Origin: Candidatus Falkowbacteria bacterium
Lineage (GTDB): Bacteria > Patescibacteriota > Patescibacteriia > JACRDY01
Assembly: GCA_016218485.1 (NCBI GenBank)
Contig: JACRDY010000059.1
Location: 11,529 to 75,528 of the forward strand
DNA length: 64,000 nucleotides
Direction of reading: 5' to 3'
Part shown: piece after piece, positions 16,669 to 54,903 of the stretch
How the letters are laid out: each line of letters starts with the position of its first letter
How positions within the stretch are numbered: position 1 is the first letter of the stretch
The notes under the pieces: generated by a model
The model's database searches: none
What the model was told of the DNA's origin: nothing
Seen by the model: only the letters and a program-made list of their open reading frames with translations
Program-made: the position numbers and the translations under genes

Positions 16669-16669
16669 A

Positions 16670-16810: not shown

Positions 16811-16871
16811 TTCCCATCTGTCCCGCCCATCTTGATTTTTCCTCATTCATCTGCTACACTGCCCAAACTCT

Positions 16872-18173: not shown

Positions 18174-18352
18174 TTACGAATTACGAATTACGAATGAGTG
18201 ATTTTTAATTCGTAATTATTAACAGGAGTTACGCACTTCTAAAATTTTCAGCTAATTTTAGAGTAACAATAAAAATTATTAACAGCTAATTTTAGCCAAT
18301 TTTTATTAAAAGTGCGTAACTCCTGTTATTAATTCGTAATTCGTAATTAAAC
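18172..18352. repeat. attacga heptamer repeats plus a ~28-bp-arm inverted repeat (taattattaacaggagttacgcactt ... aagtgcgtaactcctgttattaatt) just upstream of tRNA-Glu
   Basis: Read directly. Confidence 0.7.
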
Positions 18353-18359
18353 TTGGCCC

Positions 18360-18434
18360 CATCGTCTAACGGTTAGGACATCAGGTTTTCAACCTGGTAA
18401 CCCGGGTTCGACTCCCGGTGGGGTCACCAACCGA
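18360..18434 (+). tRNA. tRNA-Glu (anticodon UUC), CCA encoded
   Basis: Cloverleaf folded by hand: acceptor GGCCCCA/TGGGGTC; D-arm TCGTCTAACGGTTAGGAC; anticodon loop TTTTCAA; T-arm CCGGGTTCGACTCCCGG. Confidence 0.85.
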
Positions 18435-18585
18435 TGAGCTGTTCGAGAGATGTTATAGGGTGACCTATAGCGGAGACCCGAACCTGTCCGCCGAAGTCCG
18501 CCGCGGCGGACGTAGGTGGATGGATTGAATATTTGGCTCGAAAGGGCAAACCAAGAAATCGCCGAAGGGCGGTTTTTTGATATAG
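18435..18585 (+). ncRNA. candidate small RNA or structured tRNA trailer ending in an intrinsic terminator (cgccgaagggcggtttttt)
   Basis: ~150 nt non-coding; contains a third copy of the gtccgccgcggcggac palindrome; terminator at ~18558-18580; not matched to any known RNA family. Confidence 0.2.
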
Positions 18586-28770: not shown

Positions 28771-28831
28771 ATCCAGCACCTTTCAGAATACCCCGTCAGT
28801 TTGCTGCGGGGTATTCTGAAAGGTGCTGGAT
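28771..28831. repeat. atccagcacctttcagaatacccc...ggaaggtgctggat palindromic repeat (short form)
   Basis: Perfect ~28-bp arms. Confidence 0.8.
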
Positions 28832-30535: not shown

Positions 30536-31125
30536 AAGATTTCAAGAAACAAAGAATCAATCGGTAAGTATTGTTTCGTTGCTTATTTGCTTCTTTGTTT
30601 CTTGGCCCCCCTGTTTCTTGGCCCCCTTGACTATTCAGGCGTAATTATTCTAAGATAACAAAATCCCAGACCGCGGAGGGTGTGGTCTCGAAGGACCTGG
30701 TCCTCAAACAGGATGCCTGTATTGCCTATTCGGGCCAGTGACGACATTCTCTGACACCATGGCAGCACCGTTTCTCCATTCGGGGCGCAATAGAGTGGGC
30801 GTTGCCCAAAAGCCCTGGGAGCGCAGAAACGAAGCGAGCAATGGCGATGAGACGCCGTCTAGGCCCGGATTCATCGGGCTCACCATGAATCAGAGGGACC
30901 CTTCGAGCCCTCCCTCCCGCGGTCGTTCACACGACACGAAAGCCCTCGCCCAACCACGATGATAAAAAAGTGTCTCCTAGTAGGACTCCAAATTCCCGGG
31001 TAGACACTTCCGGGGTCATCTGGTTGGGCGAGGTGCCCCTCCATTTTCATTCAGCCGATAGAATATCCGTTTAGAATATCCGTTTATAGCGGGTTTTTAT
31101 TTTTTTTGCTATACTGGTAATAGTA
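30536..31125. other. ~590-bp non-coding stretch of unknown nature (candidate structured RNA or decayed gene)
   Basis: No convincing ORF; internal palindromes (aggacctggtcct; duplicated ttcttggccccc; duplicated gaatatccgttta); did not match tmRNA, RNase P or SRP RNA consensus on inspection. Confidence 0.3.
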
Positions 31126-31127
31126 TA

Positions 31128-31245
31128 ATCCAGCACCTTCCAGAATATCCCGCAGCAAGCTGACGGGGTATTCTGGAAGGTGCTGGATGAATGGCTGAGA
31201 GAGTATTTCTGTGGCGTGCACTACCCCGACAGGAAGGTGCTGGAT
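31128..31245. repeat. atccagcaccttccagaata... palindromic repeat (long form)
   Basis: Near-identical to 11846-11947. Confidence 0.8.
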
Positions 31246-32280: not shown

Positions 32281-32384
32281 TTGTTTATAAGGTTTAACCA
32301 ATAGGCCGCTCCGGAAACGAGGGCGGTTTTTTAGATAAATTTTTTTATTAAAATTATCCATAGCGCTGATTAAGCTCAACCCCA

Positions 32385-32520
32385 CCCTGTCCCTCCCCTT
32401 ACTTCGGCCCCGCATTATGCGGGGACCTTGCAAGAGGAGGAGACGTGCTCTTCCGACTCAGGTGGTAGGTCCCGTCTCCTCCCCTTGCGGAGTAAGGGGA
32501 GGGACAGGGTGGGGTTGAGC
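32385..32520. repeat. ~135-bp GC-rich mosaic palindrome (ccccaccctgtccctccccttacttcgg-ccccgcattatgcgggg ... aaggggagggacagggtgggg)
   Basis: Outer and inner arms complementary, read directly. Confidence 0.8.
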
Positions 32521-32649
32521 CAAATCATAGCGCCTGCCAGATTAAATTTTTTTGCTTTTTCTCGGTACTTGATATAGAATGGTCGTACAATCTAAGTCCC
32601 ATTTGGGCCTAAGCAGGGGTATAGCAAAAAATACCGCTGTCAGTTTTGC

Positions 32650-32740
32650 ATTAAAAATCTTGTTAAATTGCCACATTGCCAAATTGTCGCACTGTTGTGT
32701 GAGGTATTTAACAATGTAGCCATGTGACAATGTAACAATA
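32650..32740. repeat. attgcca-heptamer-based palindromic repeat upstream of uvrB
   Basis: Related to 16670-16810. Confidence 0.6.
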
Positions 32741-34662
32741 TGTTATTTAAAGTCGTTTCCCCATTCCAGCCGGCCGGCGATCAACCCGAGGCCATTACGG
32801 CCTTAACGGGCGGTTTTGCCAAATATCCGCAGCAGACGCTCCTCGGCGTGACCGGGTCAGGCAAGACTTTTACCGCGGCCAATGTCATTGCCAGACTGAA
32901 CAAGCCGACGTTGGTTTTGTCGCACAACAAGACACTGGCGGCGCAGCTGTACAATGAGTTCCGGGAATTTTTTCCCGAGAACAAGGTATGTTATTTTGTT
33001 TCGTATTACGACTACTACCAGCCGGAGAGCTATTTGCCGATCACTGACACGTACATTGAGAAGGACATGAAGATCAATGAGAAGATTGAGCAGCTGCGGC
33101 TTGAGGCCACGGCGGCCTTGATGAGCCGTGATGACGTGATTGTTGTCTCGTCCGTTTCTTGCATTTACGGCCTGGGCAAGCCGGATAATTTTAAATCCAG
33201 CGCCGTGGAAATCAAAGTGGGCAGTAAAATTTCCCCGGAAGAATTTGTCTCAAAACTCGTAGACATCCAGTATGAGAACTCGGACCTAGAGCTGCATCCG
33301 GGGAATTTTCGTTTGCGTGGCAGTACGGTGGAGCTGATTGAGGGCGCGGGTACCACGGTGCTGCGAATCGAGTTTGATGAAAAGAAAATCGCCAAGATCA
33401 GCGAGCTGCATCCCATCACGTTCAACAAGACCGGAGACATCAGTGACGTCTACATTTTCCCGGCGCGGCATTTCGTGTTTGACGCCGGCAGCACTCAGAA
33501 AGCTCTGAAAACCATTCGGGCTGAATTACAAGAACGGCTGCCCCAGCTCGATGACATTAAAGCCTATCGCCTTGAGAAGCGGACGAATTATGACCTGGAA
33601 ATGATAGAGCAGCTGGGACACTGCAAGGGGATTGAGAACTACTCGCGGCACTTTGACGGCCGGCGTCCGGGCGAGCAGCCCTATACCCTGATTGATTATT
33701 TCAAAGCTAAGGGTGACTGGCTGCTCTTAATTGACGAGAGCCATGTATCGCTGCCGCAGGTCCAGGGTATGTACGGCGGCGACCGCAGCCGCAAGGACAA
33801 TTTGATTGAGCACGGTTTTCGCTTGCCCTCGGCGTACGACAATCGGCCATTGACCTTTACTGAATTTGAAAAATATTTAAATCACGTGATTTATATTTCC
33901 GCCACGCCGAGCGAATATGAACGGGAACACTCGGGTCAGATCGTTGAGCAGATTATTCGGCCGACCGGTCTCGTGGATCCTCCGATCACGGTCAAGCCGG
34001 CCGAAGGCCAAGTCAAAGACGTGGAGCGGGAAATCCGGAAAACGGTTGAGCAGGGCTACCGCGTCTTAGTTACCACCTTGACTAAACGTCTGGCTGAAGA
34101 TTTGACCAGCTATTTGGTTGAACAGAACATTAAGGCCAAATACCTGCACAGTGAGATTGATACGATGGAGCGGACTAGGCTGATTCAGGATTTGCGCTTG
34201 GGTAAGTTTGACGTTTTGGTTGGGATTAACCTGCTCCGGGAAGGCCTGGACATCCCGGAAGTGGCGCTGGTGGCGATACTGGACGCGGACAAGGAAGGCT
34301 TCCTGCGCAATGAACGCAGTCTGATCCAGACCATTGGCCGAGCGGCGCGCAATGTGGACAGCCGGGTGATTATGTATGCCGACACGTATACCCGTTCAAT
34401 CAAAGCGGCCATCAAAGAAACCGACCGCCGACGGATGCGGCAAGAGCAGTATAATACCGAGCACGGCATTACTCCGGAGAGCATTACTAAGGCGATTATT
34501 GTTCGTGAGGACGTCATTCTGCCGGAATTGAAGGGCCAAGCGCTGGATGCCGAAAAAGTGTTAGTTGAGCTGGAGCTGCAGATGCAGGCCGCGGCCGAGA
34601 GTCTGGACTTCGAGCGGGCGATCATGCTGCGGGATAAGATTAAAGAATTAAAAGAGAAATAA
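32740..34662 (+). CDS. uvrB: excinuclease ABC subunit B
   Basis: 640 aa; GVTGSGKT Walker A, helicase motifs and C-terminal UVR domain. Confidence 0.95.
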   Translation: MLFKVVSPFQPAGDQPEAITALTGGFAKYPQQTLLGVTGSGKTFTAANVIARLNKPTLVLSHNKTLAAQLYNEFREFFPENKVCYFVSYYDYYQPESYLPITDTYIEKDMKINEKIEQLRLEATAALMSRDDVIVVSSVSCIYGLGKPDNFKSSAVEIKVGSKISPEEFVSKLVDIQYENSDLELHPGNFRLRGSTVELIEGAGTTVLRIEFDEKKIAKISELHPITFNKTGDISDVYIFPARHFVFDAGSTQKALKTIRAELQERLPQLDDIKAYRLEKRTNYDLEMIEQLGHCKGIENYSRHFDGRRPGEQPYTLIDYFKAKGDWLLLIDESHVSLPQVQGMYGGDRSRKDNLIEHGFRLPSAYDNRPLTFTEFEKYLNHVIYISATPSEYEREHSGQIVEQIIRPTGLVDPPITVKPAEGQVKDVEREIRKTVEQGYRVLVTTLTKRLAEDLTSYLVEQNIKAKYLHSEIDTMERTRLIQDLRLGKFDVLVGINLLREGLDIPEVALVAILDADKEGFLRNERSLIQTIGRAARNVDSRVIMYADTYTRSIKAAIKETDRRRMRQEQYNTEHGITPESITKAIIVREDVILPELKGQALDAEKVLVELELQMQAAAESLDFERAIMLRDKIKELKEK

Positions 34663-34666
34663 ATCT

Positions 34667-35119
34667 ATGAAGAAAAAACACGTGGACGCAGAGTACAGTC
34701 AGATCACCTCCTATATCTGGATTGGCACTAATCAGTGCTGTAATTTCCATTTTAAGAAAGAATTATTGCGGCAGGGGATTGACGCGGATATTAGTCTGGA
34801 AGAAGAGCGGGTGGATGAGCCGGTTGGTGTGCATCATTTTCTCTGGTTGCCAGTCAAAGATCATCATGCGTTGAGTCAGACACAGTTGCATATTGGGGCG
34901 GCTTTTATGGAAACGTTAGTCAAAAGCAAAATCAAGATGTATGTCCACTGCAAAAACGGTCATGGCCGTTCACCCAGTTTGGTGATGGCTTATTTTATCA
35001 CGCAAGGCAAAACGTATCAGCAGGCCTTTGACTTGGTCAAGAGTAAACGTCCGGAAGTACATCTTCGGCCGAGTCAAACAGCGGCTCTGCGGAAGTTTGC
35101 TCAGCGTCGGAAGAAATAA
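34667..35119 (+). CDS. dual-specificity / tyrosine protein phosphatase (DUSP-like)
   Basis: 150 aa; VHCKNGHGRSPS = HCx5R catalytic loop. Confidence 0.75.
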   Translation: MKKKHVDAEYSQITSYIWIGTNQCCNFHFKKELLRQGIDADISLEEERVDEPVGVHHFLWLPVKDHHALSQTQLHIGAAFMETLVKSKIKMYVHCKNGHGRSPSLVMAYFITQGKTYQQAFDLVKSKRPEVHLRPSQTAALRKFAQRRKK

Positions 35120-35231
35120 AAAAACAAACCCGTTCGCAATAGCGGGAACGGATTTGTTTGACGGTTCCAGGTTTGACACTTGAATATTACCAGTATAACA
35201 AAGTATATTGTTGTGTCAATGGAATAGGTGT

Positions 35232-35300
35232 GGAGCTAAGGGGAATCGAACCCCTGTATTCAAGTGTCAGGCTGGAATACCGCCACCAGGCATAGCTCCA
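35232..35300 (-). tRNA. tRNA-like gene with canonical acceptor and T-arm but atypical D/anticodon region; anticodon unresolved (loop CCUGACA)
   Basis: Minus-strand RNA GGAGCUAUGCCUGGUGGCGGUAUUCCAGCCUGACACUUGAAUACAGGGGUUCGAUUCCCCUUAGCUCCA; 7/7 acceptor pairs; GGGGUUCGAUUCCCC T-arm; no CCA; anticodon stem needs a C-U mismatch or a 9-bp stem. Confidence 0.55.
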
Positions 35301-35381
35301 CACCCAAGGCGAGTGTACCAGAGGTAGTATTAAAAAAATCTAAACTATTTAATTAATTAAAATTTTTGCCTTACTGTTGAT

Positions 35382-38222
35382 ATGCCCAGTGAATCCATCC
35401 AAATCCGCGGCGCGCGGGAACACAATCTCAAGAGCATCAACGTGGATATTCCGATTAACCAGTTCACGGTGATTACCGGCCTGTCCGGCAGCGGCAAGTC
35501 GAGCCTCGCGTTTGACACCGTCTACGCCGAGGGTCAGCGTCGGTATGTTGAGAGTCTGTCGAGTTACGCCCGGCAGTTTTTGGGCATCATGGGCAAGCCG
35601 GATGTGGACAGCATCAAGGGCCTCTCGCCGGCGATTTCGATTGAGCAGAAGAGTATCTCACACAACCCGCGCTCAACCGTCGGGACGATCACGGAAATTT
35701 ACGACTACTTGCGTCTGCTCTATGCCCGGATCGGCGTGCCGCACTGTCCGCTGTGCGGTACGGTAATCAAACCGCAAGACGCGGAGAGTATTACCAAAAA
35801 TTTGCTGACTGGTTTTGCCGGGAAAAAAGTCAAGATTCTGGCGCCCATTGTGCGTGGCAAAAAGGGCAACTACGAGCAGCTATTTTTAGACTTGAACAAA
35901 CAGGGCTATGTCCGCGTCCGGGTGGATGGCAAGGAAGGGGAGGTGACGGATTATTTTGGCCAGGGTAAGACAGTGATTGAGCGCTATGCCCCGCACAACA
36001 TTGAAGTCTTGATTGACACGATTAAAGTTGACGGTCCGGCGAAAACTCGGTTGCAGCGCTCGATTGAGTCGGCATTGAAGCTGGCCGCTGGTCTGGTGAT
36101 GGTTATTATTGAGCAGCATAAAAAAGACGCAATTGAAAAAGTTTACTCACAGCATTTAGCTTGTCCGGACTGCGGCATTAGTTTTGACAAATTACAGCCG
36201 CGCCTGTTCAGCTTCAATTCACCCTTTGGCGCCTGTCCGACCTGTCACGGTCTGGGCTTTATCCAAAAATTCGAGCCGGAGCTGATTATTCCGGACAAAG
36301 GCTGGACGCTGTCTGAGGGCGCTATTCGGCCGCAGGGGTTCAGCGTCAGCGGGTTCTTTGGTCAAATGCTCGAGACCCTCGGTCACAAGTACAAGTTTAG
36401 CGTTGAGACGCCGGTTCAGGATTTGTCCAAGAAAATCATGGATATTATTTTCTATGGCACGGATGACAAGATTGACTGGGAATTCGCCTCCAAGAGCACG
36501 GATAATGTCTGGGAGTGGACGGGTCGCTGGGAGGGGATTGTGCACCGTCTGGAGCGGCTGTACAAGCAAACGGACTCGGATAGCCGGCGGGCGGAGATGG
36601 AGCGCTACATGATAGAGCAGCCGTGCGGTGGCTGCGGCGGCGCCCGGCTCAAGCAGGAGGCGCTGGCCGTGATGCTATCCGGTAAAAATATCCATGAGAT
36701 TACCGGCTTGCCAATTACCGAGCTGGTTGCTTTTCTGTCCACGATCAAGCTGAACAAAGCGGAAACCGAGATCGGCAAACAAATCATGAAAGAGCTGGCT
36801 GACCGACTGCAGTTTCTGGTTGACGTCGGACTTGATTATTTGACGCTGGCGCGGCGCGGGGCCACGCTGTCCGGGGGCGAGGGTCAGCGGATTCGTCTGG
36901 CGACGCAGATCGGCTCGGAGCTGCGCGGCGTGACCTATATCCTGGACGAGCCGTCGATCGGCCTGCACCAACGTGATAATGAGAAACTGATCAAGACGCT
37001 CAAGAATATGCGCGATATTGGCAACACCGTCATCGTGGTGGAGCACGACGAGGATACGATTTTGGCCGCGGATTATGTGTTTGATATCGGGCCGGGCGCG
37101 GGGATCCACGGCGGGCACGTGGTGGCGGAGGGCACGCCGGAGCAGATTAAGAAAAATAAAAAATCGCTGACCGGGGCGTATCTGTCCGGCCGCCAGCACA
37201 TCAGCGTCCCGGATAAGCGGCGCCGGCCGCACGGTTTTATTGAGCTGCGCGGCGCGCGCCACAATAATTTGAAAGATATTAACGTCGACTTTCCCGTGGA
37301 AGTGCTGTGCTGCATCACCGGCGTGTCCGGCAGCGGCAAGTCCAGCCTGATTACCGACACGTTGTATCCAATACTCGCCAAGAAACTGCACTACGCGCGC
37401 GTGGTGCCCGGCGCGCATGACAGCATTGAGAATTTCGGCTATGTGGACAAGGTGATTATCATTGACCAGTCGCCGATTGGCCGGACGCCCCGTAGTAATC
37501 CAGCTACTTATACGGGAGTGTTTACTTATATTCGTGAGTTATTTGCCGCTACGAAAGAGGCTAAGATACGGGGCTACCAGCCGGGACGGTTCAGCTTCAA
37601 CGTTGAGGGCGGACGCTGCGGCAACTGCGAGGGCGACGGCGTGATTAAGATTGAGATGCATTTCTTGCCTGATGTCTATGTGGAGTGCGAGCAGTGCAAA
37701 GGTCAGCGCTACAATGAGGAAACACTGGAGGTGAAGTACAAAGACAAGAATATCGCTGAAGTTCTGAATATGACGGTGGAAGAAGCCCTGACGTTCTTCG
37801 GGCCGGTGCCGCGGATTAAGAGCAAGATGCAGACGCTCTTCGACGTTGGCTTGGGCTATATCAAGCTGGGCCAGTCCGCCACCACGCTGTCCGGCGGCGA
37901 GGCCCAGCGCATCAAGCTGACCGCCGAGTTGTCACGGCGCGATACCGGGCGTACACTGTATATACTTGATGAGCCGACCACCGGCCTGCACTTCGCCGAC
38001 ATTGAGAAGCTCCTGGAAGTGCTGAATCGTCTGGTGGACAAAGGCAACACGGTGATCGTGATTGAGCACAATCTCGACGTAGTCAAGTCCGCGGACTATA
38101 TTATTGATTTGGGTCCCGAAGGCGGCGACCGCGGCGGGCAAGTGATTGCCAAAGGCACGCCAGAGCAGATAGTCAAAGAAAAGGGGAGCTATACCGGGAA
38201 GTTTTTGCGGAGGGTGGTTTAA
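35382..38222 (+). CDS. uvrA: excinuclease ABC subunit A
   Basis: 946 aa; two ABC modules with zinc-finger insertions. Confidence 0.95.
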
Positions 38223-38334
38223 TCCATCTTTTTGCTTTTTTAGGTTATCCACAGTTTAATCTTGATTTTTGATCAGAATAGTGTATTATTATTTTTAGGA
38301 TCTAAATAATAATTAATTTTTTAAGATCAAAAAT

Positions 38335-39414
38335 ATGGAGGAATTTAAATTAAAAGCATTCAAAGTCATCCAAAATGGTAGGCAATTTTACGTTTCAACC
38401 ATCACATGTGAGCAGCTACTCGACGAAGATACCTTTAGAACCGACATTTGGAAAGAGGAATTGAAAAATACTCCATCAAAACAAGGGTATCAACGAGAAC
38501 CATCTCAAAATCATGTTAATGGAGTTGTGAAGTATATGGCTGGTGATAATATATCAATTTTTCCCACCAGTATTTTGCTAAATTGCCGTTATAAAATACC
38601 TAGTCGCGAAAATGGCAGTATATTTGAGATAACTATTGATAGACCTCTATGGATCGTGGATGGTCAGCACCGAATTTATGGCATTAGAAAGGCCATTCAA
38701 GAGAAAGGTCTAAGAGAGTGGAAAGGATTTTCTGTGCCGGTAGTTATATTAGATGAATTTGATCAAGGTGAAGAATTAGCTCAATTTAAGGTTATTAATG
38801 AGAGTCAAAAGGGGATATCTACTGGTCTGTTGCAGTGGCAGATGTATCAACAGTATACTCGTGACCCTGAAATGAAGGATAAATATAAGAGTAAAATTTG
38901 GCAGGTCAAAGCTTTAATGGCTATGGATAAACTTAATGATGACGATAATAGCCCTTGGAAAAATCATATTCAACTGCCAAACGTGGAGAAACGCAGAGAT
39001 CATTCAATTAACCAAACTTCTTTTGTGACTTCTTTGAAGCCTTTATTTAAGGATGGTTTTCTAAGTAATTATAAACTAGATGATTCGGTTTTAGTCCTTA
39101 AGAATTATTGGAAAGCGGTCTCTGTATTGTTTCCTGAGGCAATGAAAGACCATAAGCATTATTTACTATTAAAAACCCCTGGTATTTTTCCATTACATCT
39201 ATTAGCTAACGAAATATTACCGCGTTGTAACAAAGATGTCAGTATAGAGAAGATATTGGAGTATTTAAAAGTTGTTTTTAAAGATCAAAAATATAGTAAC
39301 GAATTTTGGTCGAAAAAAGGCCGAGGAGCAGCTTTGTTAGGAAGTATGAAAGGATTTAAACGTTTAGCGGATGATTTGATCATGGATCTTCCAGAACAAA
39401 CCTTAACAAAATAA
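38335..39414 (+). CDS. DGQHR domain protein (DndB-like, ParB/Srx-fold)
   Basis: 359 aa; WIVDGQHRIYGI motif; ~36% GC against a ~55% background. Confidence 0.75.
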   Translation: MEEFKLKAFKVIQNGRQFYVSTITCEQLLDEDTFRTDIWKEELKNTPSKQGYQREPSQNHVNGVVKYMAGDNISIFPTSILLNCRYKIPSRENGSIFEITIDRPLWIVDGQHRIYGIRKAIQEKGLREWKGFSVPVVILDEFDQGEELAQFKVINESQKGISTGLLQWQMYQQYTRDPEMKDKYKSKIWQVKALMAMDKLNDDDNSPWKNHIQLPNVEKRRDHSINQTSFVTSLKPLFKDGFLSNYKLDDSVLVLKNYWKAVSVLFPEAMKDHKHYLLLKTPGIFPLHLLANEILPRCNKDVSIEKILEYLKVVFKDQKYSNEFWSKKGRGAALLGSMKGFKRLADDLIMDLPEQTLTK

Positions 39415-39424
39415 TTAAAATAAT

Positions 39425-39565
39425 ATGGCTAGAAAGATGACCAGTCCTCGAGTAGCTAAGATTGCCTCAAAGCAGTTAAAAAGCAAGACTGCTAATAAGG
39501 CGGCCAAGATGACTGCGGCCAGCGCTTTATCTCAGCGAGAAAAAAGTCGTCGTAAACGAAAGTAG
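39425..39565 (+). CDS. small lysine/alanine-rich basic protein (histone-H1-like composition), 46 aa
   Basis: MARKMTSPRVAKIASKQLKSKTANKAAKMTAASALSQREKSRRKRK translated by hand; 10 nt after the DGQHR gene; followed by a terminator; absent from the ORF track because it is under 60 aa. Confidence 0.45.
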   Translation: MARKMTSPRVAKIASKQLKSKTANKAAKMTAASALSQREKSRRKRK

Positions 39566-39574
39566 AGAATTCAT

Positions 39575-39610
39575 CTAAATCACCTCCGCCTCCCGCGGGG
39601 GTGTTTTTTT
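39575..39610. terminator. Hairpin (cctcccgcgggggtg) + T7, intrinsic terminator closing the DGQHR island
   Basis: Read directly. Confidence 0.6.
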
Positions 39611-39639
39611 AGTTTAGAAATATTTTAACTTTGGTATGG

Positions 39640-39830
39640 TAGGGTGTGTAATAGCCCGTTCCCCTCCTTTCCAAGGAGGGGCCAGGGGCGGTTGCCGGAG
39701 CCTTCGGTCTCTACCCAAGCTTTGTTCGCAGGCCACGGTAGCAGCCAATACCTCGGCAACCTCACCCGTCCTCCCCTTAGAAAGGGGAGGAACGGTCTAT
39801 TCCCGGTTGCCGGAGTTTAAATCCAATATA
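39640..39830. repeat. GC-rich mosaic repeat (cccctcctttccaaggagggg; ggttgccggagccttcggtc; cctccccttagaaaggggagg)
   Basis: Shares modules with 12790-12900. Confidence 0.7.
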
Positions 39831-39834
39831 TATG

Positions 39835-40233
39835 ACAAAAATTTACAACCGTCGTCAATTTAAACACTTGCGGCAAAAATTAAAGAGGGAATCAACCCCT
39901 TCGGAAGATAGGCTTTGAGGCGAAATTAACAACCGCCAATTAGGATTTAAGTTTCGCCGTCAGCACGGCATCGGTAAGTACATCGTTGATTTTTACTGTG
40001 CCGAACTACAATTGGTTATTGAGGTGGATGGCGACTCGCATACCGACCCCGATATTTACGCCGCTGACCGCATTCGTGATGCTGCATTAAGTGTTCAGGG
40101 TATAACGATTAAGCGGTATTACAGCAATGAAATTTTTAATAATTTAGAAGGTGTTATCTTGGATATTGAGGAAGTGTGTCGTGGGATAAAAAACAGCCGC
40201 CCGGGGGAGACCCGAGCGGAGCGGTGGCCATGA
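39835..40233 (+). pseudogene. DUF559 (Vsr-like endonuclease-fold) gene remnant: no ATG start and an in-frame TGA at the conserved Trp position
   Basis: Frame translates KIYNRRQFKHLRQKLKRESTPSEDRL*GEINNRQLGFKFRRQHGIGKYIVDFYCAELQLVIEVDGDSH..., matching the DUF559 consensus end to end; TGA at 39916-39918. Confidence 0.65.
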
Positions 40234-40256
40234 TGGTATAGCCGATGGTTTGGTAC

Positions 40257-40547
40257 CTACTCGCCGTAGGTACGGGTATACATCGCGAGCTGTTTGGCGA
40301 TGATCACGATCGGCTGACCCGGTTCGATGACGTAGGGTGGTCCACCCAAGCAGGATTTTCGTCCATTGATCATGAGTATTCCTTCTTGGGTTGAGATTGT
40401 TGTTCGCTGTACTGCCGGGCCGAGATCGTATTCGCCCGCCATGATCACATTCCAGGATTTGACGGGGTTGCCGTCAGCATCCAGTGCCCTCACATTTTTG
40501 ATTCGGCCATCGTGGCCGTGTCCAATGCTGGTTACCTTGCTGAGCAC
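40257..40547 (-). CDS. hypothetical small protein
   Basis: 96-aa ORF; weak DUF3892-like feel; not confidently assigned. Confidence 0.4.
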   Translation of the reverse strand: MLSKVTSIGHGHDGRIKNVRALDADGNPVKSWNVIMAGEYDLGPAVQRTTISTQEGILMINGRKSCLGGPPYVIEPGQPIVIIAKQLAMYTRTYGE

Positions 40548-40710
40548 CCTCCACCTCCTTGGATCTCGTCGTGTGAGTTTAAAGTATACGGTCAGTCACA
40601 AAAAGTCAAGTGAATCGTTCTATAGAGTAGTGGCGGATTTGGCCCCTTTGGTTTATAATTATACTGTTACTCTTTGGCAGCTCAATTAACTTATTCATAA
40701 AAAATGCAGT

Positions 40711-41748
40711 ATGAATAATTCTCCATTGTTTCCGCGTTTGTGGGAAAAATTTAAACAGCTGTTCGTGATTGTGGCTGTGGTGCTGGTGGTCGGCTCAATC
40801 GTGGTGTATTTTGGCGCCACTAGTCTGACGCGACTACGGTATGGCGGGATCAGCGCTAATGACGCGCCAAGTTACGGCGGCGCGTTCGGAGATTATGGCG
40901 TGGCGACCGGCCTGAGCGCGAGTGATTCTCGTGGCGTGTTTCAGACCAAAGTCGCGTATGAGGCGGATGACTCGGGCAACGGACTGGTGGCAGCGGCGCA
41001 GGCTCAGGAGGGTGAGCTGACTCAGAAGAAAATTATCCGCAATGGCGCGCTCGGTCTGTTCGTGGACAGTCCGGAGGAGTCAGCGCAGGCGATTGAGCGG
41101 GTGGCTCTGAGCGTGGACGGTTTTGTCCAGGATTCGAATATTAGCGAGCAGACGAATGGCAGCAAGTACGGGGAAGTGGTCATCCGGGTGCCGGCTGTTG
41201 AGTTTGATTCCGTTATGGAGCAAATCAAGGGCCTGGCTCGTGAAGTGGAATTTGAGCGCGAGAACGCGCAGGATGTGACGGAGCAGTTTGTCGACCTGGA
41301 CGCGCAGCTGCGCAATTATCGGGCGGAAGAGGGGCGCTATCTTAAATTCATGAATCAGGCGAAGAATATTGATGAGACGCTCAAAGTCGCCGAGCGGCTG
41401 AGCGTGGTCCGCGGGCAGATTGAGCGGATCGAGGGTCAGCTCAAGTTTCTGTCCCGGCAGGTTGATATGTCAGTCATCAGTGTCAGCCTGACATCGTATG
41501 ACGACGTTAAGGTCTTTGGCGTGCGCTGGCGGCCGTTGTATGAGCTCAAAAAAGCGGCGCGCGGTCTGTTTGAGGCGGGTCGGACGTATATCAACTTTGT
41601 TATCAAGTTGGTTGTCTATCTGCCGATCATTGTGCTCTGGGCGCTGACTATCCTTCTGGTTACCTGGGTCGTTTGGAAATTGTTGAAGTGGCTGCACCGG
41701 CGATTTTTGCAAGGGAAAAAATTGGATGATAGTTGGCCGCGGCAGTAA
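40711..41748 (+). CDS. DUF4349-like membrane-anchored protein (N-terminal TM, coiled-coil middle, C-terminal TM)
   Basis: 345 aa with that architecture. Confidence 0.6.
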   Translation: MNNSPLFPRLWEKFKQLFVIVAVVLVVGSIVVYFGATSLTRLRYGGISANDAPSYGGAFGDYGVATGLSASDSRGVFQTKVAYEADDSGNGLVAAAQAQEGELTQKKIIRNGALGLFVDSPEESAQAIERVALSVDGFVQDSNISEQTNGSKYGEVVIRVPAVEFDSVMEQIKGLAREVEFERENAQDVTEQFVDLDAQLRNYRAEEGRYLKFMNQAKNIDETLKVAERLSVVRGQIERIEGQLKFLSRQVDMSVISVSLTSYDDVKVFGVRWRPLYELKKAARGLFEAGRTYINFVIKLVVYLPIIVLWALTILLVTWVVWKLLKWLHRRFLQGKKLDDSWPRQ

Positions 41749-41794
41749 AAAAGAGTATAGTAAAGGGGTGCTATTTAGTGCCCCTTTTGGTAGT

Positions 41795-43411
41795 ATGTCA
41801 TTTTTTATTAAAAAAATTGGTCTTCATCAGCGGTATACTATTATTTTTGTTTTGTTAGGGATCGCTTCTTTTTTGGTTTTTAGTGTCCTGTCTGCCCGAC
41901 TGGCTTTCGTATCGGATGAATATGAGTTTATTTACGCTGCAGCGCAGGTACGCGATTGGGGTACACTTGTTCAGGTGCTAACCTCGAAAATTGGTGGCGA
42001 TTTTTATCGTCCAGTTTTGTATTTTTCTTTTATTATTGATTTTTGGGTTTATGGTTTGCAACCATTTGGTTATTATCTAACCAATAGTTTGTTAGCGGCG
42101 GTTAATGTGGTTTTAGTAGCGTTGATAGTTTTTACCGCTTTAGTTAATTACTTTTATAGTGATCCACGGGATCATGCTCGCAGTTTATTTCTTGCCCTTG
42201 TCTCTGGCGTGGTCTTTATGATTTTTCCGAATCATCATGAAGCCGTCACGTGGTTGGCCGCCAGAACGGATCTCTTAGCCGCTACGTGGTACTTTTTATC
42301 AGTTCTATTGTGGTTAAAATATTTAGCGGCCGAGAGGCGGGGTGGTCGGTATTTGACTGCAGGTTGTATTTTTGCCTTTCTAGCTTTTTTTACCAAAGAG
42401 ATGAGCGTTACCTTGGTACTCGCGCTGCCCATTATTTTTTTAGGGCATTTATTGTATATGCATCAGCGCCAGCAAAATTATAATTTTAAAAAATTGGTTG
42501 GTTTCTTGCCGCTTTTGGCGATATTTATTTTTTATTTGGTCTTCCGGCGGTATATCGTGGGGTATTGGTTCGGCGGGTATATGCTGAGTGGCAGTTCCGA
42601 GTTTCTTAAAATAGACATTCCGGCGGTTATCCGTTTGGTGTTGTCACCGGTGTCGATAGTTTTTTATTCACTGAATCATAGTTATTTTTTTCAGATAGTA
42701 TTGCCGCGTTGGGGCGGACCGTTTCGGGGGTTACCGTTTACCGATTATTTACAATATTTTAAATTTTTGTTTTATGGCGGTGGGGCAGTGTTCATATCGT
42801 TAACGGCGTTTTTTGCCTATTATCAGCAGCGAGTGCGTACCTGGTTACTGGGTGTCATGGTCGGCATACTCTGGGTTTATGTGACGATTCTGCCGATAGT
42901 TGGTTTACTAAAAACCGTTGGGTTGAATTTGGAATCAACGAGGTTTTTTTATTTACCCTCACTAGGAATTTGTTTTCTGTTGACGTTTAGTGTACTGTTT
43001 TGGCCAAAAATTATCCGTGGTATTATGGTGGTTGTCATGGTGTCTTTATTGTCAATTGTCTATTGGATAAATTATCAGCCGTGGTTGACTGCTTCCGTTT
43101 CCGCCAATTCAATTCAGCAAACCGTTACGCAATACGGTAGTGAGATCGTTTTCGACGATTGGGTGTATCTCGTGAATGTTCCCGATAATATCCATGGTGC
43201 CTATGTTTTTCGTCGGGGGTTGACTCAGATGTTCCAGCTCTTTCAGCCTCAGATTGATCGGCAGAAAATAATTATAACCGGCCGAGGCGTGGCAGGCATG
43301 GCCGCGCCAGACTGTTTATCATTGCTCAGCGATCAGTATTGGTTGATGAATACCGATCCTGAGAGCGGTATTGTTGATGGTTTGAGCAGAGCGGGAGCGG
43401 GGGGGGGGTAG
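41795..43411 (+). CDS. GT-C family glycosyltransferase (PMT/ArnT-like), interrupted at a G10 tract
   Basis: Many TM helices; GYYLTNSLLAAVNVVLVALIVF matches the GT39/83 N-terminal loop region; start inferred at MSFFIKK; stop immediately follows G10 at 43399-43408. Confidence 0.65.
   Translation: MSFFIKKIGLHQRYTIIFVLLGIASFLVFSVLSARLAFVSDEYEFIYAAAQVRDWGTLVQVLTSKIGGDFYRPVLYFSFIIDFWVYGLQPFGYYLTNSLLAAVNVVLVALIVFTALVNYFYSDPRDHARSLFLALVSGVVFMIFPNHHEAVTWLAARTDLLAATWYFLSVLLWLKYLAAERRGGRYLTAGCIFAFLAFFTKEMSVTLVLALPIIFLGHLLYMHQRQQNYNFKKLVGFLPLLAIFIFYLVFRRYIVGYWFGGYMLSGSSEFLKIDIPAVIRLVLSPVSIVFYSLNHSYFFQIVLPRWGGPFRGLPFTDYLQYFKFLFYGGGAVFISLTAFFAYYQQRVRTWLLGVMVGILWVYVTILPIVGLLKTVGLNLESTRFFYLPSLGICFLLTFSVLFWPKIIRGIMVVVMVSLLSIVYWINYQPWLTASVSANSIQQTVTQYGSEIVFDDWVYLVNVPDNIHGAYVFRRGLTQMFQLFQPQIDRQKIIITGRGVAGMAAPDCLSLLSDQYWLMNTDPESGIVDGLSRAGAGGG
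43399..43408. repeat. Homopolymeric G10 tract
   Basis: Read directly; removing one G fuses the 41726-43411 and 43419-43817 frames. Confidence 0.9.
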
Positions 43412-43418
43412 CCATGAT

Positions 43419-43817
43419 TTGGTCGATTGGGATTTGGCGGCGGGTGAAGTGATCGGCAACGATATTGCAGTGGTATCCACGGGGGTCTATCGGGTAACCG
43501 GGCCGCATCCTGAGATTGTTTTTAGAAATCTTGATTTAGATCCTGCTGGAATAAAAAATTTACAGTTGACGGTAATCCCTAAAAATAATTATCTTTGGCA
43601 GCCCTACCATGTCTACTGGACGACTAATAGGTATCCGGGTTATCATGAGTACCATCGTAATATTTGGGTCTTCCGTGACGTGTTGTCTCTGGATGCACAG
43701 AGTGAAAATTTCCAGATTCCAGTTTGTCGGTATCCCGCGTTTGTTTTTTCCGATAGTGTACAAGATATAAAATTGACATTACCATTTGTTATTGGTGAAG
43801 ATTTCAGTTTGCAATAA
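43419..43817 (+). CDS. probable C-terminal continuation of the GT-C glycosyltransferase (frame +1 after the G10 tract)
   Basis: Frame is open back through the poly-G; TTG start only; 132 aa. Confidence 0.45.
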   Translation: MVDWDLAAGEVIGNDIAVVSTGVYRVTGPHPEIVFRNLDLDPAGIKNLQLTVIPKNNYLWQPYHVYWTTNRYPGYHEYHRNIWVFRDVLSLDAQSENFQIPVCRYPAFVFSDSVQDIKLTLPFVIGEDFSLQ

Positions 43818-43823
43818 GTAGGT

Positions 43824-45383
43824 ATGCTATTTTCTATTAACCAAGTTATCATCCCCAGTCAGCCCGGCTGCTACCTGATGAAAAATTCAGCCGGAGAGAT
43901 TTTGTATATTGGTAAAGCCAAAAATCTGCCCAAGCGGGTCAAGTCATACTGGCAAAAAAAGCATATTGATCCAAAACTGGACGAGCTTATCACCGAGGTG
44001 GCGGATATTGAATTCATGGTTACGCGCAATGAAGTGGAAGCATTACTCCTGGAGGCGCGCCTGATCAAGCAGCACCAGCCGAAGTACAACTCCATGCTCA
44101 AGGAAAACGTCCCGTATTTGTATATCAAGATTACCGATGAAGAATTTCCTCGGTTGGTCAGCGTCAGGAAAATTGAGGGACCGGGGAAATATTTCGGGCC
44201 GTTTGTCAGCGGTCGCGGGCGCAAGTATCTGCTCCTGACCACCGCGCGCCTGTTCGGCATTCGGACGAACAAGCTGACGAGCCGCAGCAGCCGCGAGCTG
44301 TATCAGCTCTTGAGCGAGATCAAAGAAAAGCAACTGGAAAAATTGTCGCCAGTGGAATACCAGCGCAACGTCAAACTGGCGGACATGTTCCTGCGCGGTA
44401 AGCGGACGCAGCTTTTGGGCGAGCTGGAAAAGAGAATGAAGCAGGCGAGCGCTGAAGAGCATTTCGAGCTGGCCAAATTATATCGCGATCAAATTCACGC
44501 CATCAAGATTATTGCCGAGGATCAGCTGGTGTCGCTGCCCAAGAGCTATGATCAGGATGTGGTTAATTTTGTCATGGCCGGCGAGACGGCGTATTTCCAG
44601 GTGTTTAATGTCAGTAAGGGGATAGTGACTTCAAGACAGCAGATAGCGGTTAGCGGTTGGCAGTTAGCCAGTCAGCCCGGATTATTACGCGATTTTTTAC
44701 AACAGTACTACTTAACCCGTGCCGCACCAAAGGAAATTGTTTTGCCGATTGAACCGGCGGAGTCAGCTTTAATAGAGCAATATCTGGAAGATTTGAAAAG
44801 TCAGAAGGTTTTTTTAACCATACCAAAAGTGGGCGACAAGAAGAAACTATTGGAACTCGTGCGGGAAAATATTTTGAGCGGTCTGGCCAATAATCCACTG
44901 GCTGAACTGCAGGCGCAATTGGGCCTCCAGCGGCTGCCCCTGACCATTGACGGTTTTGATATTTCTAATACCTCGGGCCAGCAGGCGGTTGGCTCGTGCG
45001 TGCGTTTCCATGACGGCAAACCGGACAAGAGCATGTACCGGAAGTTTAGAATTAAAACCGTTGAGGGGCCGAATGACTTTGCCATGATGAAAGAAGTCGT
45101 GGGGCGGCGGTACCGTGAGGGCAAGGATGTGCCTGATTTAATCTTGATTGATGGGGGCAAGGGTCAGCTCGGGGTGGCAACGCGCGCGCTGCAAGCTTTA
45201 CGAATTATGGTGCCGGTTATTTCTTTAGCCAAAAAACAGGAGGAAATTTTCATCCCCGGCCGGGAGCAGTCCATTCAGCTGGATAAGAATTCACCGGCCC
45301 GTAAACTGCTGCAGCAGGTTCGGGATGAGGCGCATCGGTTCGCGATCAGTTACCACAAGCTGCTAAGAAAAAGACGGGGCTAA
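43824..45383 (+). CDS. uvrC: excinuclease ABC subunit C
   Basis: 519 aa; N-terminal GIY-YIG (GCYLMKNSAGEILYIGKAKNL), UvrBC-interaction region and RNase-H-like endonuclease domain. Confidence 0.88.
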   Translation: MLFSINQVIIPSQPGCYLMKNSAGEILYIGKAKNLPKRVKSYWQKKHIDPKLDELITEVADIEFMVTRNEVEALLLEARLIKQHQPKYNSMLKENVPYLYIKITDEEFPRLVSVRKIEGPGKYFGPFVSGRGRKYLLLTTARLFGIRTNKLTSRSSRELYQLLSEIKEKQLEKLSPVEYQRNVKLADMFLRGKRTQLLGELEKRMKQASAEEHFELAKLYRDQIHAIKIIAEDQLVSLPKSYDQDVVNFVMAGETAYFQVFNVSKGIVTSRQQIAVSGWQLASQPGLLRDFLQQYYLTRAAPKEIVLPIEPAESALIEQYLEDLKSQKVFLTIPKVGDKKKLLELVRENILSGLANNPLAELQAQLGLQRLPLTIDGFDISNTSGQQAVGSCVRFHDGKPDKSMYRKFRIKTVEGPNDFAMMKEVVGRRYREGKDVPDLILIDGGKGQLGVATRALQALRIMVPVISLAKKQEEIFIPGREQSIQLDKNSPARKLLQQVRDEAHRFAISYHKLLRKRRG

Positions 45384-45397: not shown

Positions 45398-45525
45398 AAA
45401 TTCAAAGTTCAAAATCCAAATGACAAATCAAGTTCAAAGCCTAAATGTCAAATCAACGCACCTTTTTGAACTTTGTCATTTGGCATTGATTTGAACTTTG
45501 GATTTTGAACTTTGAACTTATCGGG
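45398..45525. repeat. AT-rich gttcaaagt palindromic repeat
   Basis: Near-identical to 14325-14450. Confidence 0.75.
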
Positions 45526-49007: not shown

Positions 49008-50018
49008 ATGGTTCAAAAAGTCCGCGTCGCCATTAACGGTTTCGGTCGCATTGGCCGGGCGGCATTTAAAATTGCTTTAGACAACAAGAAAGTGGAGGTG
49101 GTGGCGATTAATGATCTGGTGGCGCCGTCGGTGCTGGCGTATCTTTTAAAATATGATTCAGTCTACAATACGTACGATAAGAAAGTGACCGCTGACAGTA
49201 AACACGTCATCGTCAATGGCAAGAAGTATCCGGTGTTTCAGGAGCGCGAGCCAAAGAGATTGCCCTGGAAAAAGTTGGGAGTGGATGTGGTTTTGGAGTG
49301 CACCGGATTTTTTCTGGACACGGCCGGGGCCGGACAGCACCTGCGGGCGGGCGCCAAAAAAGTGGTCATCTCCGCACCGGGCAAAGACGATGTGGCCAAC
49401 ACGCACGTCTTCGGCACTCTAGAGACGCAGAAGCATGTTAAGCACGGCCAAGTGGTTTCCAACGCTTCCTGCACCACCAATTGCATCAGCCCGGTGATGC
49501 AAGTCTTGGCCACCGTGTTTGGGATTGAGAAAGCGATGATGACGACCGCGCACGCCTATACCGCGAGCCAGGGGCTGGTTGATGAACCAAACAGCAAGGA
49601 TATGCGTGAAGGCCGCGCGGCGGCAATGAACCTAGTACCCACCCACACCGGCGCGGCGGAGGCGACCGCCAAAGTGGTCCCGGCGCTGCAGGGAAAATTC
49701 ACCGGTATTTCCATCCGCGTGCCCGTGATCTGCGGTTCGTTGTCTGACGTCACCTGTGTTTTGAAAAAAAATGTGACGGCAGAACAGGTCAATAATGCGT
49801 TTCGCCGCGCTGCCAAGCAGCCGCTGTTCAAAAATATTCTGGAAGTTTCCGACGCACCATTAGTTTCCAGTGACATCATTGGCAATCCGCATTCGGCGAT
49901 CGTGGACACGACCTTTACCCGCGTGGTTGACGGTAACTTAGTGAAGGTTTTGGCCTGGTATGATAACGAGTGGGGGTACGCGCACCGGTTGGTGGAGATG
50001 GCGGTGGCAGTAAGTTAG
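49008..50018 (+). CDS. gap: glyceraldehyde-3-phosphate dehydrogenase
   Basis: 336 aa; NGFGRIGR and ASCTTNC active-site motifs. Confidence 0.95.
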   Translation: MVQKVRVAINGFGRIGRAAFKIALDNKKVEVVAINDLVAPSVLAYLLKYDSVYNTYDKKVTADSKHVIVNGKKYPVFQEREPKRLPWKKLGVDVVLECTGFFLDTAGAGQHLRAGAKKVVISAPGKDDVANTHVFGTLETQKHVKHGQVVSNASCTTNCISPVMQVLATVFGIEKAMMTTAHAYTASQGLVDEPNSKDMREGRAAAMNLVPTHTGAAEATAKVVPALQGKFTGISIRVPVICGSLSDVTCVLKKNVTAEQVNNAFRRAAKQPLFKNILEVSDAPLVSSDIIGNPHSAIVDTTFTRVVDGNLVKVLAWYDNEWGYAHRLVEMAVAVS

Positions 50019-50019
50019 T

Positions 50020-50125
50020 AATCAGTAATCAGTAATCAGTAATCAGTAATCAGTAATCAGTAATCAGTAATCAGTAATCAGTAATCAGTAACTAGTTACT
50101 AGTTACTGATTACCAGTTACTTTAT
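50020..50125. repeat. Tandem heptamer array (agtaatc)x10 followed by inverted (agttact)x3
   Basis: Read directly. Confidence 0.9.
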
Positions 50126-51176: not shown

Positions 51177-51237
51177 ATCCAGCACCTTCCAGCATATCCC
51201 GTCAGCGTGCTGCGGGGTATGCTGGAAGGTGCTGGAT
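51177..51237. repeat. atccagcaccttccagcata... palindromic repeat (short form)
   Basis: Family copy. Confidence 0.8.
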
Positions 51238-51339
51238 AAAAATTAGAAATTGGAGAAAAACCCTTTGAAATAAAAGGTTTTTTATTTGCCAAAATAGGGG
51301 ATTCTGGTATAGTTGATGAGGGAGAAATTCAGTATTTCC

Positions 51340-51440
51340 TGCGTTTTAGTTATTGGAAAGAGATTTAGTATATCGTATGTCGTATATGGTATGTGGGGAA
51401 ATTCCCCCATATACCATATACCACATACTATATTCCCCCC
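51340..51440. repeat. gtatatg-heptamer-based palindrome directly upstream of paralog 1
   Basis: tcgtatgtcgtatatggtatgtgggg / ccccatataccatataccacatac. Confidence 0.6.
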
Positions 51441-51441
51441 T

Positions 51442-53091: not shown

Positions 53092-53154
53092 CGCACAGCA
53101 CAGAGCTTATAGCACAAAGCTATGCGCTCTGAGCTCTGTGCTTTGAGCTACTTT
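53092..53154. repeat. Inter-paralog palindromic spacer (gcacagcacaaagc...gctctgagctctgtgctttgagc); same at 54841-54903 and 58418-58477
   Basis: Three near-identical copies read directly. Confidence 0.8.
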
Positions 53155-54840: not shown

Positions 54841-54903
54841 CACACAGCACAAAGCGCAGAGCACAAAGCTATGCGCTCTGAGCTCTGTGCTTTGAGCTAC
54901 TGT

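Follow-up and report, generated by a model that had tools for sequence, protein, structure and literature searches.

A chimeric pseudo-tRNA with tRNA-Ala-type ends beside uvrA in a Candidatus Falkowbacteria bacterium, and a putative small RNA complementary to its centre

The subject of this study is a transfer RNA (tRNA)-like element in the uvrABC repair cluster of an uncultured Candidatus Falkowbacteria bacterium, within a 64,000-nucleotide (nt) stretch of contig JACRDY010000059.1 to which we refer as the window. At this locus, uvrB (32740-34662) is followed by a gene for a DSP-family phosphatase (34667-35119), and a 262-bp spacer containing the element separates the phosphatase gene from uvrA (35382-38222). 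The element is 69 nt long and lies on the minus strand, running from G1 at 35299 to its discriminator A at 35231; a putative small RNA (sRNA) unit that we call sRNA1 lies next to it and is convergent with the phosphatase gene. The first-pass annotation of this DNA had placed the element at 35232-35300, which is one base off and leaves the minus strand unstated, and it had correctly described a setting between the phosphatase gene and uvrA, about 3 kb from a low-GC stretch. That stretch (38-40 kb) lies beyond uvrA and carries a DndB-like gene. The same sequence is found over 34279-36968 in an independent Logan assembly of the same sample (SRR12113407). More widely, uvrB, uvrA and uvrC are clustered in 32740-45383 with lineage-specific inserts, namely the DSP phosphatase gene between uvrB and uvrA, and genes for a DndB-like protein, a DUF4349 protein and an unknown protein of 561 amino acids (aa) between uvrA and uvrC.

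Read in RNA order, the element is GGAGCUA-U-GCCUGGUGGC-G-GUAUUCCAG-CCUGACA-CUUGAAUAC-AGGGGUUCGAUUCCCCU-UAGCUCC-A. Its minimum free energy (MFE) structure as calculated with RNAfold (-28.6 kcal/mol, z = -2.74 relative to 200 shuffles) combines acceptor and T stems of 7 and 5 bp with a D stem of 3 bp, which closes a 4-nt loop, and an anticodon-like stem of 9 bp. The acceptor stem, GGAGCUA/UAGCUCC, whose 5' strand occupies 35293-35299, and the T-arm, AGGGG-UUCGAUU-CCCCU, are Watson-Crick paired throughout, and the T loop is of the UUCRANY type. Together, the T-arm AGGGGUUCGAUUCCCCU, the acceptor strand UAGCUCC and the discriminator A span 35231-35255. The D-like hairpin delimited by the fold and by ARAGORN is reduced to GCC-UGGU-GGC (35282-35291), with GG in its loop. 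The anticodon-like arm (35256-35280) has a stem of 9 bp, including one C.U mismatch, and a 7-nt loop, CCUGACA, that places C at positions 33 and 37; between this stem and the T stem there are no variable nucleotides. RNAfold thus reproduces exactly the structure that had been drawn by hand in the first-pass annotation, with its 3-bp D stem, its 9-bp stem and C.U mismatch, its loop CCUGACA and its C33, and the cloverleaf with a perfect acceptor stem and canonical T-arm reported there is real. The element is flanked by a 5' leader, UGGGUGU (35300-35306), and by a 3' trailer, CACCUA (35225-35230), that does not contain CCA. When minus-strand positions 35312-35115 (198 nt) are folded as one molecule, the cloverleaf is followed by a hairpin and a terminator (z = -6.85), and the discriminator A and the trailer pair with the leader, which lengthens the acceptor helix to 14 bp (a 12-bp perfect inverted repeat).

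Under default settings, ARAGORN does not call the element and reports only a tRNA-Glu(UUC) at 18355-18429 in the window. Under relaxed or metazoan-mitochondrial settings, it returns the identical non-canonical fold with the label Ser(tga), and in mitochondrial mode it does so at the default threshold. A standard cloverleaf with a normal anticodon, which would have meant that the hand-drawn fold was wrong, did not emerge, and the relaxed run kept the non-canonical structure. With the tRNA model of Rfam (RF00005), the element scores 29.8 bits, just above the gathering score of 29 (E = 0.036 over 4227 families, both strands); the acceptor stem and T-arm are aligned and the D and anticodon arms skipped. 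Apart from the genuine tRNA-Glu, which scores 63.1 bits with the same model, this is the only Rfam tRNA match in 64 kb. Together with the identity of its 3' end to tRNA-Ala genes, described below, this marks the element as more than a chance likeness. Weak Rfam matches to mascRNA (23.7 bits) and Plastid-ycf2 were set aside as generic tRNA shape, since tRNA-Glu scores equally (24.1 bits for mascRNA). A likeness by eye of UGCCUGGUGGC plus CCUGAC to the 5' part of 5S rRNA was also rejected; Rfam returned no 5S match at E ≤ 10.

Several features speak against a role in decoding. The element does not have the 5-bp stem, U33 and purine 37 of a canonical anticodon arm, and a shift of register that would supply U33 and A37 (anticodon GAC) destroys the anticodon-like stem. 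Its D loop has 4 nt where 7-11 are canonical, and a variable region, canonically of at least 4 nt, is absent. In a comparison with the one genuine tRNA of the window, tRNA-Glu ends in ...GGGGTCACCA with CCA encoded, whereas the element ends in ...CUCCA-CACCUA with CCA not encoded. The major identity element recognized by alanyl-tRNA synthetase (AlaRS) is the G3:U70 pair, and bacterial seryl-tRNA synthetase (SerRS) requires a long variable arm. The element is like tRNA-Ala in its A73, 3' strand and T-arm; it has A3:U70 for G3:U70 and UGA rather than NGC in the anticodon position, and it does not have the long variable arm of bacterial (type II) tRNA-Ser. With G3:U70 and the long variable arm both missing, neither AlaRS nor SerRS should accept it.

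The first-pass annotation had entertained an unusual functional tRNA. Such an aberrant decoding molecule, for example a tRNA-Ser(UGA) of mitochondrial style whose D arm is short and whose anticodon stem is extended, would fit the mtRNA-Ser(tga) call that ARAGORN makes in metazoan-mitochondrial mode, and U8, the GG of the D loop and the canonical T loop would allow an elbow to form. The architecture also recalls mammalian mt-tRNA-Ser(UCN), with which it shares the anticodon UGA, a lengthened anticodon stem, a short D loop and the single nucleotide that separates the acceptor stem from the D stem (PMC7819119). This resemblance is formal only: the stem of the element has 9 bp where that of the mitochondrial tRNA has 6, positions 33 and 37 are both C, variable nucleotides are missing, and the host is a bacterium. 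In addition to the silence of ARAGORN at default settings, the partial Rfam alignment and the departures listed above, the leader and trailer are fully paired, CCA is not encoded even though tRNA-Glu of the same window encodes it, the centre is copied from adjoining non-tRNA DNA, and the element is not found in relatives, as described below. We regard this explanation as extremely unlikely, and the element is almost certainly not a decoding tRNA. The designation pseudo-tRNA, that is, tRNA descent with loss of decoding features, is supported. Transfer-messenger RNA (tmRNA) is another bacterial RNA with a tRNA-like domain; there, too, the acceptor and T-arm are of the tRNA-Ala type, the D region is reduced, and a long helix replaces the anticodon stem. 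However, the element has no G3:U70, no mRNA-like domain and no pseudoknots, and its length is 69 nt rather than about 350 nt. The tmRNA mode of ARAGORN found no tmRNA, even at a relaxed threshold, and the Rfam tmRNA model, whose gathering score is 47, reaches 16.8 bits with an alignment limited to the 3' end of the element.

The two halves of the element have different origins. The acceptor stem by itself is not diagnostic, because a general acceptor pattern run against viral contigs also finds GGAGCUA/UAGCUCC in ordinary phage genes for tRNA-Asp, tRNA-Gln, tRNA-Arg and tRNA-Ile; it is the T-arm together with the 3' strand that points to tRNA-Ala. These show 0 changes relative to the tRNA-Ala consensus, the tRNA-Ala-type 3' end being written as ...GGGGTTCGATTCCCCTTAGCTCCA. 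The 3'-terminal 23-mer of the element, GGGGTTCGATTCCCCTTAGCTCC, occurs in 16 stretches of viral or prophage contigs, and the tRNA called at the match, where there is one, is always tRNA-Ala; the other matches are bare fragments of the attachment-site (att) type. The 3'-terminal 28 nt are 100% identical to phage attachment (attP) regions of actinophages, which was the sole match from BLAST searches of phages and plasmids. The 5' strand, GGAGCUAUG, is tRNA-Ala GGGGCUAUAG with G3 changed to A when compared with the GGGGCUA of tRNA-Ala genes having the same 3' end, so that the wobble pair G3:U70 is replaced by a Watson-Crick A:U pair. On this comparison, the top half of the element (acceptor and T-arm) very probably derives from tRNA-Ala.

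The centre has a nearby counterpart. Nucleotides 16-43 of the element (GGCGGUAUUCCAGCCUGACACUUGAAUA, 35257-35284 on the minus strand) are an inverted copy of plus-strand positions 35160-35186 (GACGGTTCCAGGTTTGACACTTGAATA), with 23 matches, 13 of them consecutive, and two small indels. The score of the inverted alignment of nt 22-43 with 35165-35186 was reached by only 1 of 2000 shuffles. The two copies differ at 5 of 28 positions, and a 2-nt insertion extends the anticodon-like stem to 9 bp. The alignment suggests that the centre quite probably arose by local inverted duplication. We regard the element as a chimera, in which a tRNA-Ala top half sits on a bottom half copied from the adjacent unit, and the pseudo-tRNA of the first-pass annotation can be refined to one with tRNA-Ala-type ends and an inverted-copy centre. 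A direct repeat (TATTCCA..TGACAC) between the anticodon arm and downstream sequence was dropped because 235 of 2000 shuffles were as good. The motif TGACAC occurs three times around the element.

The source of the centre belongs to sRNA1. A promoter-like site, TTGACA-16 nt-TGtTATACT (35192-35219, minus strand), begins 12 nt past the element. With 11 of 12 consensus positions matched, it is the best site of the sigma-70 type in 64 kb, and no other 11/12 match has a TG extension. A start near 35185-35188, together with a hairpin at 35159-35122 followed by UUUGUUUUUUU, predicts an RNA of about 70 nt (35117-35188, minus strand), which folds with its terminator with z = -4.2. The terminator hairpin (35122-35159) is strong, bidirectional and common to the convergent phosphatase gene, and the minus strand carries its longer U-run, of 7 U. 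The first ~27 nt of the predicted RNA pair with the centre of the element and fold as a mirror-image hairpin, so that the 5' hairpin of sRNA1 is antisense to the anticodon-like arm. The predicted duplex between the element and the first 30 nt of sRNA1 has an energy of -34.3 kcal/mol, compared with -13.9 ± 3.0 kcal/mol for shuffled sequences (about 6.8 standard deviations), the best of 500 shuffles reaching -24.3 kcal/mol. An imperfect palindrome, TTGACAC...GTGTCAA (12 of 15 bp; 35173-35219, minus strand), covers the promoter and would form a hairpin only in a read-through transcript. Rfam has no match to sRNA1 (35117-35219, minus strand). Small open reading frames (ORFs) over the spacer and the sRNA units were rejected as non-coding, as they read through the terminators and have no stop ahead of the U-run.

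A consensus promoter at 56659-56687 lies directly ahead of an ATG at 56696 and ends 8 nt before it; because this match precedes a start codon, the promoter type appears to be used in this genome. Taking the promoter, fold and complementarity together, we lean towards regarding the sRNA gene as real. In this lineage, mRNAs without leaders seem to be frequent, as judged from 56659-56696 and from L001 (2985-3003), one of the four closest UvrA loci, where a TATAAT stands 7 nt before the uvrA ATG.

BLAST and nhmmer comparisons within the window revealed a diverged paralogue of the 3' fragment and sRNA unit at 7243-7380 on the plus strand, between the genes for a nucleotide kinase and dCMP deaminase. 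A paralogous tRNA 3' fragment, CGATTCCCCTCAACTCCAC (7243-7261), matches 17 of 19 positions of the T loop and acceptor 3' strand; no cloverleaf surrounds it, and the sequence upstream of it folds as a three-way junction and has no Rfam match. It is followed by a second putative unit, sRNA2 (7287-7380), with a promoter (TTGATA-16 nt-TGcTATAGT), the block AAATGTCAA and a terminator, AACAAATCC...CGGGTTTGTTTTTT. The terminators of sRNA1 and sRNA2 share AACAAATCC and CGGGTTTGTTTTTT exactly, and the parts of the two units stand in the same order. The nhmmer matches between the units are reciprocal and unique (E = 2.4e-4 and 0.014), and the identities of their segments range from 46% to 70%. The repeated unit is therefore a tRNA 3' fragment plus an sRNA gene, and the cloverleaf and the antisense relation are peculiar to the copy near uvrA. 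The region of the paralogue (7150-7385) sits in a thymidylate-metabolism cluster.

Taken together, these data modestly favor the reading that the element is a chimeric pseudo-tRNA derived from tRNA-Ala, which may pair with the sRNA. We give slightly under an even chance to its being a structured, non-decoding tRNA-like RNA that has been retained, rather than an inert relic or one of the other rivals. In the mechanism that we propose, the element would be transcribed as a compact, stable, tRNA-shaped RNA, and its anticodon-like hairpin would meet the complementary 5' hairpin of sRNA1, with contact made first between the loops. A perfect helix of 13 bp would form next, extendable to about 25 bp, and one RNA would titrate or destabilize the other, as an antisense pair or a sponge. 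We infer the transcription of either RNA, its processing, the pairing in vivo and any cellular effect from the sequence. Functional pairing of the two RNAs, to which the duplex energies point, is possible but on balance unlikely. A fuller version, in which the tRNA-Ala top half became a stable, non-chargeable decoy, the anticodon arm became the antisense of a neighboring sRNA within a two-RNA module between uvrB and uvrA, and A3:U70 was selected to keep the decoy out of translation, is more doubtful still.

An inert relic is almost as likely and ranks a close second, although we would not give it better than a substantial minority chance. According to this explanation, a redundant copy or fragment of a tRNA-Ala gene was duplicated along with the sRNA or terminator region downstream of it, its centre was overwritten by a template switch or an inverted duplication, through the same palindrome-forming process that fills the intergenic regions, and nothing at the site now functions as RNA or DNA. 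The structure of the element carries several signs of retention that such a relic would not be expected to show. All four helices are intact, and whereas neutral decay should break some of the 24 stem positions of the top half, 0 are broken. The sole change in the acceptor, G3 to A, improves pairing and at the same time removes alanine identity. The T-arm and 3' strand, and indeed the whole of the 3' 28 nt, carry no substitutions, in contrast to the centre, whose two copies now differ at 5 of 28 positions. The 2-nt insertion in the stem and the extension of the acceptor helix by leader-trailer pairing are further signs of this kind. Finally, the acceptor/leader-trailer complementarity and the complementarity of the centre to the sRNA are interleaved rather than nested, so that one palindrome event does not explain both.

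A number of observations weigh against retention and, for the most part, in favor of the relic. The central region on its own folds with -8.8 kcal/mol compared with -7.2 ± 2.4 kcal/mol in shuffles, which amounts to no extra stability. We found no convincing promoter upstream of the element. Paired leaders and trailers are expected to hinder processing of bacterial RNase P substrates, and the element, with its 14-bp leader-trailer helix and without an encoded CCA, is therefore unlikely to undergo tRNA-like maturation. In the window we counted 61 pairs of inverted repeats (12 nt or longer), many of them 25-57 bp long; with intergenic regions so crowded with long palindromes, inverted copies could arise as by-products of mutation. 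Of the tRNA-like part, the paralogue retains only a decayed 19-nt fragment without a cloverleaf, and it has no complementarity to its own sRNA-like unit (-12.9 compared with -10.6 ± 2.7 kcal/mol), so the pairing between element and sRNA is not conserved in the module.

The distribution of the element weighs in the same direction. We searched the 80 closest UvrA loci for the T-arm motif, and the top four (L001-L004) also with ARAGORN and with Rfam at an E-value threshold; the element is present in none of the 80. In the nearest loci, from Patescibacteria metagenome-assembled genomes (MAGs) whose UvrA is 78, 75 and 71% identical, uvrB abuts or overlaps uvrA, with no phosphatase gene and no tRNA-like sequence, and a contig with a 74% identical UvrA fragment (L121) has a different upstream region and no tRNA-like match. 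Pattern scans were equally empty. Metagenome contigs gave 0 matches for short variants with this acceptor or for a fixed-loop pattern, and viral contigs gave 0 matches for three patterns aimed at the chimeric centre or the module; two other patterns matched, in viral contigs, only ordinary tRNA genes and tRNA-Ala or att fragments. So far, the element has been seen in this one uncultured bacterium only. As the relatives have neither the phosphatase gene nor the spacer, both constitute a lineage-specific insertion. The phosphatase is 100% identical to MBI5621917.1 from a Candidatus Falkowbacteria MAG and is otherwise found only in the Logan contig; the next homologue is 60% identical, which means that no close relatives exist. 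An exact look-up of uvrA found no record.

The first-pass annotation had also raised the possibility of a tRNA-like end of an integrated element, which is weakly supported. In this scenario, the 3' tRNA-Ala fragment would be the att core of an element that targeted tRNA-Ala, and the phosphatase gene or the sRNA unit would be the rest of it. 3' fragments of tRNAs are reportedly found at the att sites of integrative elements and prophages, as work by Williams from 2002 is said to describe. Like them, the element shows exact identity from the T-arm to the 3' end and an abrupt boundary, and it carries the same 23- to 28-mers: its tRNA-Ala identity ends sharply at the T-arm, its last 28 nt equal an actinophage attP core region, and the 23-mer stands bare at prophage ends. 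The second fragment with its homologous sequence at 7243-7380, the insertion of the phosphatase gene and spacer relative to relatives, and the precedent of tRNA-Other, which flanks an island in Bacillus cereus (PMC3399842), are consistent with this as well. However, there is no integrase, recombinase or transposase among the ORFs of at least 150 aa in 64 kb, and no direct repeat brackets an island. The two fragments lie on opposite strands and 28 kb apart, so they do not enclose an island, and uvrA stands between the element and the low-GC stretch. In addition, a bare att fragment would not bring with it a matching 5' acceptor strand, a full cloverleaf or a 14-bp helix. The loci of phosphatase homologues are unrelated, and their gene tables, which were not accompanied by a tRNA search at those loci, list no mobility genes. 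An integration-site remnant is therefore improbable in our view. Arrival of the element together with the phosphatase gene from a visible source was rejected, as the homologues (L118-L120) lie in unrelated redox and metal-resistance clusters.

We also considered whether the other strand or another molecule could be what matters, that is, whether the palindromic DNA or a plus-strand transcript serves uvrA, as a structured 5' untranslated region or as an operator for a repair regulator. The plus strand of the element region folds too (z = -4.1), and weak plus-strand promoter-like sites (TTGAAT-18 nt-TATATT and TTGACA-15 nt-TATAAC) would place an antisense cloverleaf in a uvrA leader of about 170 nt; the threefold recurrence of TGACAC is likewise compatible with such a role. 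On the other hand, the canonical polarity of the T loop and the better terminator U-run are on the minus strand, the plus-strand promoters are poor (9/12, or a 15-nt spacer), and uvrA of the relatives appears to be leaderless or coupled to uvrB. This explanation is very improbable, more so than the integration-site remnant.

An A-rich block, TTAAAAAAATCTAAAC (35330-35345), lies about 45 nt upstream of uvrA and is found again upstream of the nucleotide kinase gene (7158-7173, minus sense). As TCTAAAAATAATCTAAAT, it also occurs upstream of uvrA in the 74%-related L121 (~543-560). It had at first looked like a part of the repeated module; in view of its recurrence in L121, we consider it more likely to be part of the promoter or operator region of uvrA, and genes of DNA metabolism may share it as a promoter or operator element.

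Among described RNAs, the element has its closest counterpart in tRNA-Other of Bacillus cereus (Rogers et al. 2012, PMC3399842). This pseudo-tRNA likewise lies at an insertion site and has no role in translation; the authors propose that it supplies a tRNA-like structure in or beside regulatory RNAs. Both are bacterial, lack conserved tRNA features and sit at a genomic insertion. In contrast to the element, with its replaced centre, its A3:U70 pair and no homologue found, tRNA-Other has a recognizable anticodon arm with the anticodon CCA, shows weak aminoacylation and is conserved across several Bacilli. The mascRNA and MEN-beta tRNA-like RNAs resemble the element in being tRNA-shaped and non-decoding with a degenerate anticodon arm. 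They differ in that they are eukaryotic and are released from long transcripts through cleavage by RNase P and RNase Z, whereas the paired leader and trailer of the element should hinder RNase P.

With respect to the predicted pairing, RNAI/RNAII and CopA/CopT are antisense pairs that interact through kissing hairpins, and their pairing has been demonstrated experimentally. A tRNA-linked sponge for sRNAs is said to be encoded in the 3' external transcribed spacer of the glyW-cysT-leuZ operon of E. coli, according to work by Lalaouna and colleagues from 2015. The arrangement proposed here shares with these systems an RNA from a tRNA locus that pairs with a separate sRNA, and hairpins with complementary loops and stems. 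In the sponge, however, the pairing region is the spacer and the evidence is experimental, whereas the predicted pairing of the element involves the tRNA body and is lacking in the paralogous unit.

The chimeric origin and the predicted sRNA pairing, which come from one genome, are unusual. If the element is a relic, then a borderline Rfam tRNA match in Candidatus Falkowbacteria should not be counted as a tRNA gene or as a case of unusual decoding. If the pairing is true, then the element would be a rare natural case in which the tRNA body, and not a spacer, was rebuilt as an sRNA partner and the alanine identity pair was neutralized. To our knowledge, no sRNA circuit has been described in the Candidate Phyla Radiation, and this would be among the first candidates there, inside a uvrABC repair cluster. 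The locus also illustrates how local inverted duplication can create RNA-RNA complementarity in a palindrome-crowded genome.

Several other features of the window were recorded. Palindromes of 25-57 bp built from short tandem units (GTTCAAA, AGTAATC, CATTAAAA, AAGTT...) occupy many spacers, including those at 873-946, 6446-6561, 10418-10488, 10980-11036, 14328-14448, 16663-16811, 45398-45519, 50017-50121 and 63798-63888. They may act as terminators, or they may reflect an active process that forms palindromes. A family of hairpins resembling repetitive extragenic palindromic (REP) sequences, 25 bp and perfect or near-perfect (ATCCAGCACCTT.CAG.ATA.CCCG and its complement), is present at 28771-28831, 31128-31188 and 51177-51237. 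The copy at 31128 follows closely on an extended -10 with 17 of 18 nt (TTTGCTATACTGGTAATA) in common with the promoter and start region of sRNA1. Upstream of uvrB there is a hairpin with 40-bp arms (32367-32527). A 22-nt arm, CCCCACCCTGTCCCTCCCCTTA, is common to it and a hairpin in L003, from a related Patescibacteria genome (7704-7797; 75% UvrA identity), so the hairpin is conserved across species; the L003 hairpin gives false microRNA matches in Rfam.

The tRNA-Glu gene is preceded by a nested palindrome with 36-bp arms (18180-18350) and followed by about 150 nt of GC-rich structured sequence with a terminator at its end (18430-18580), and Rfam matches neither flank. A further GC-rich non-coding stretch of about 500 nt (30560-31050) stands behind a promoter-like site (TTGACT-17 nt-TAAGAT) and is likewise without a match in Rfam, at E ≤ 1; it could represent a structured RNA not yet described, or a gene that was overlooked. 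Finally, 51313-61841 holds six tandem paralogous genes encoding proteins of 546-592 aa, most of which have no Pfam match and three of which have an N-terminal match to a treble-clef zinc finger.

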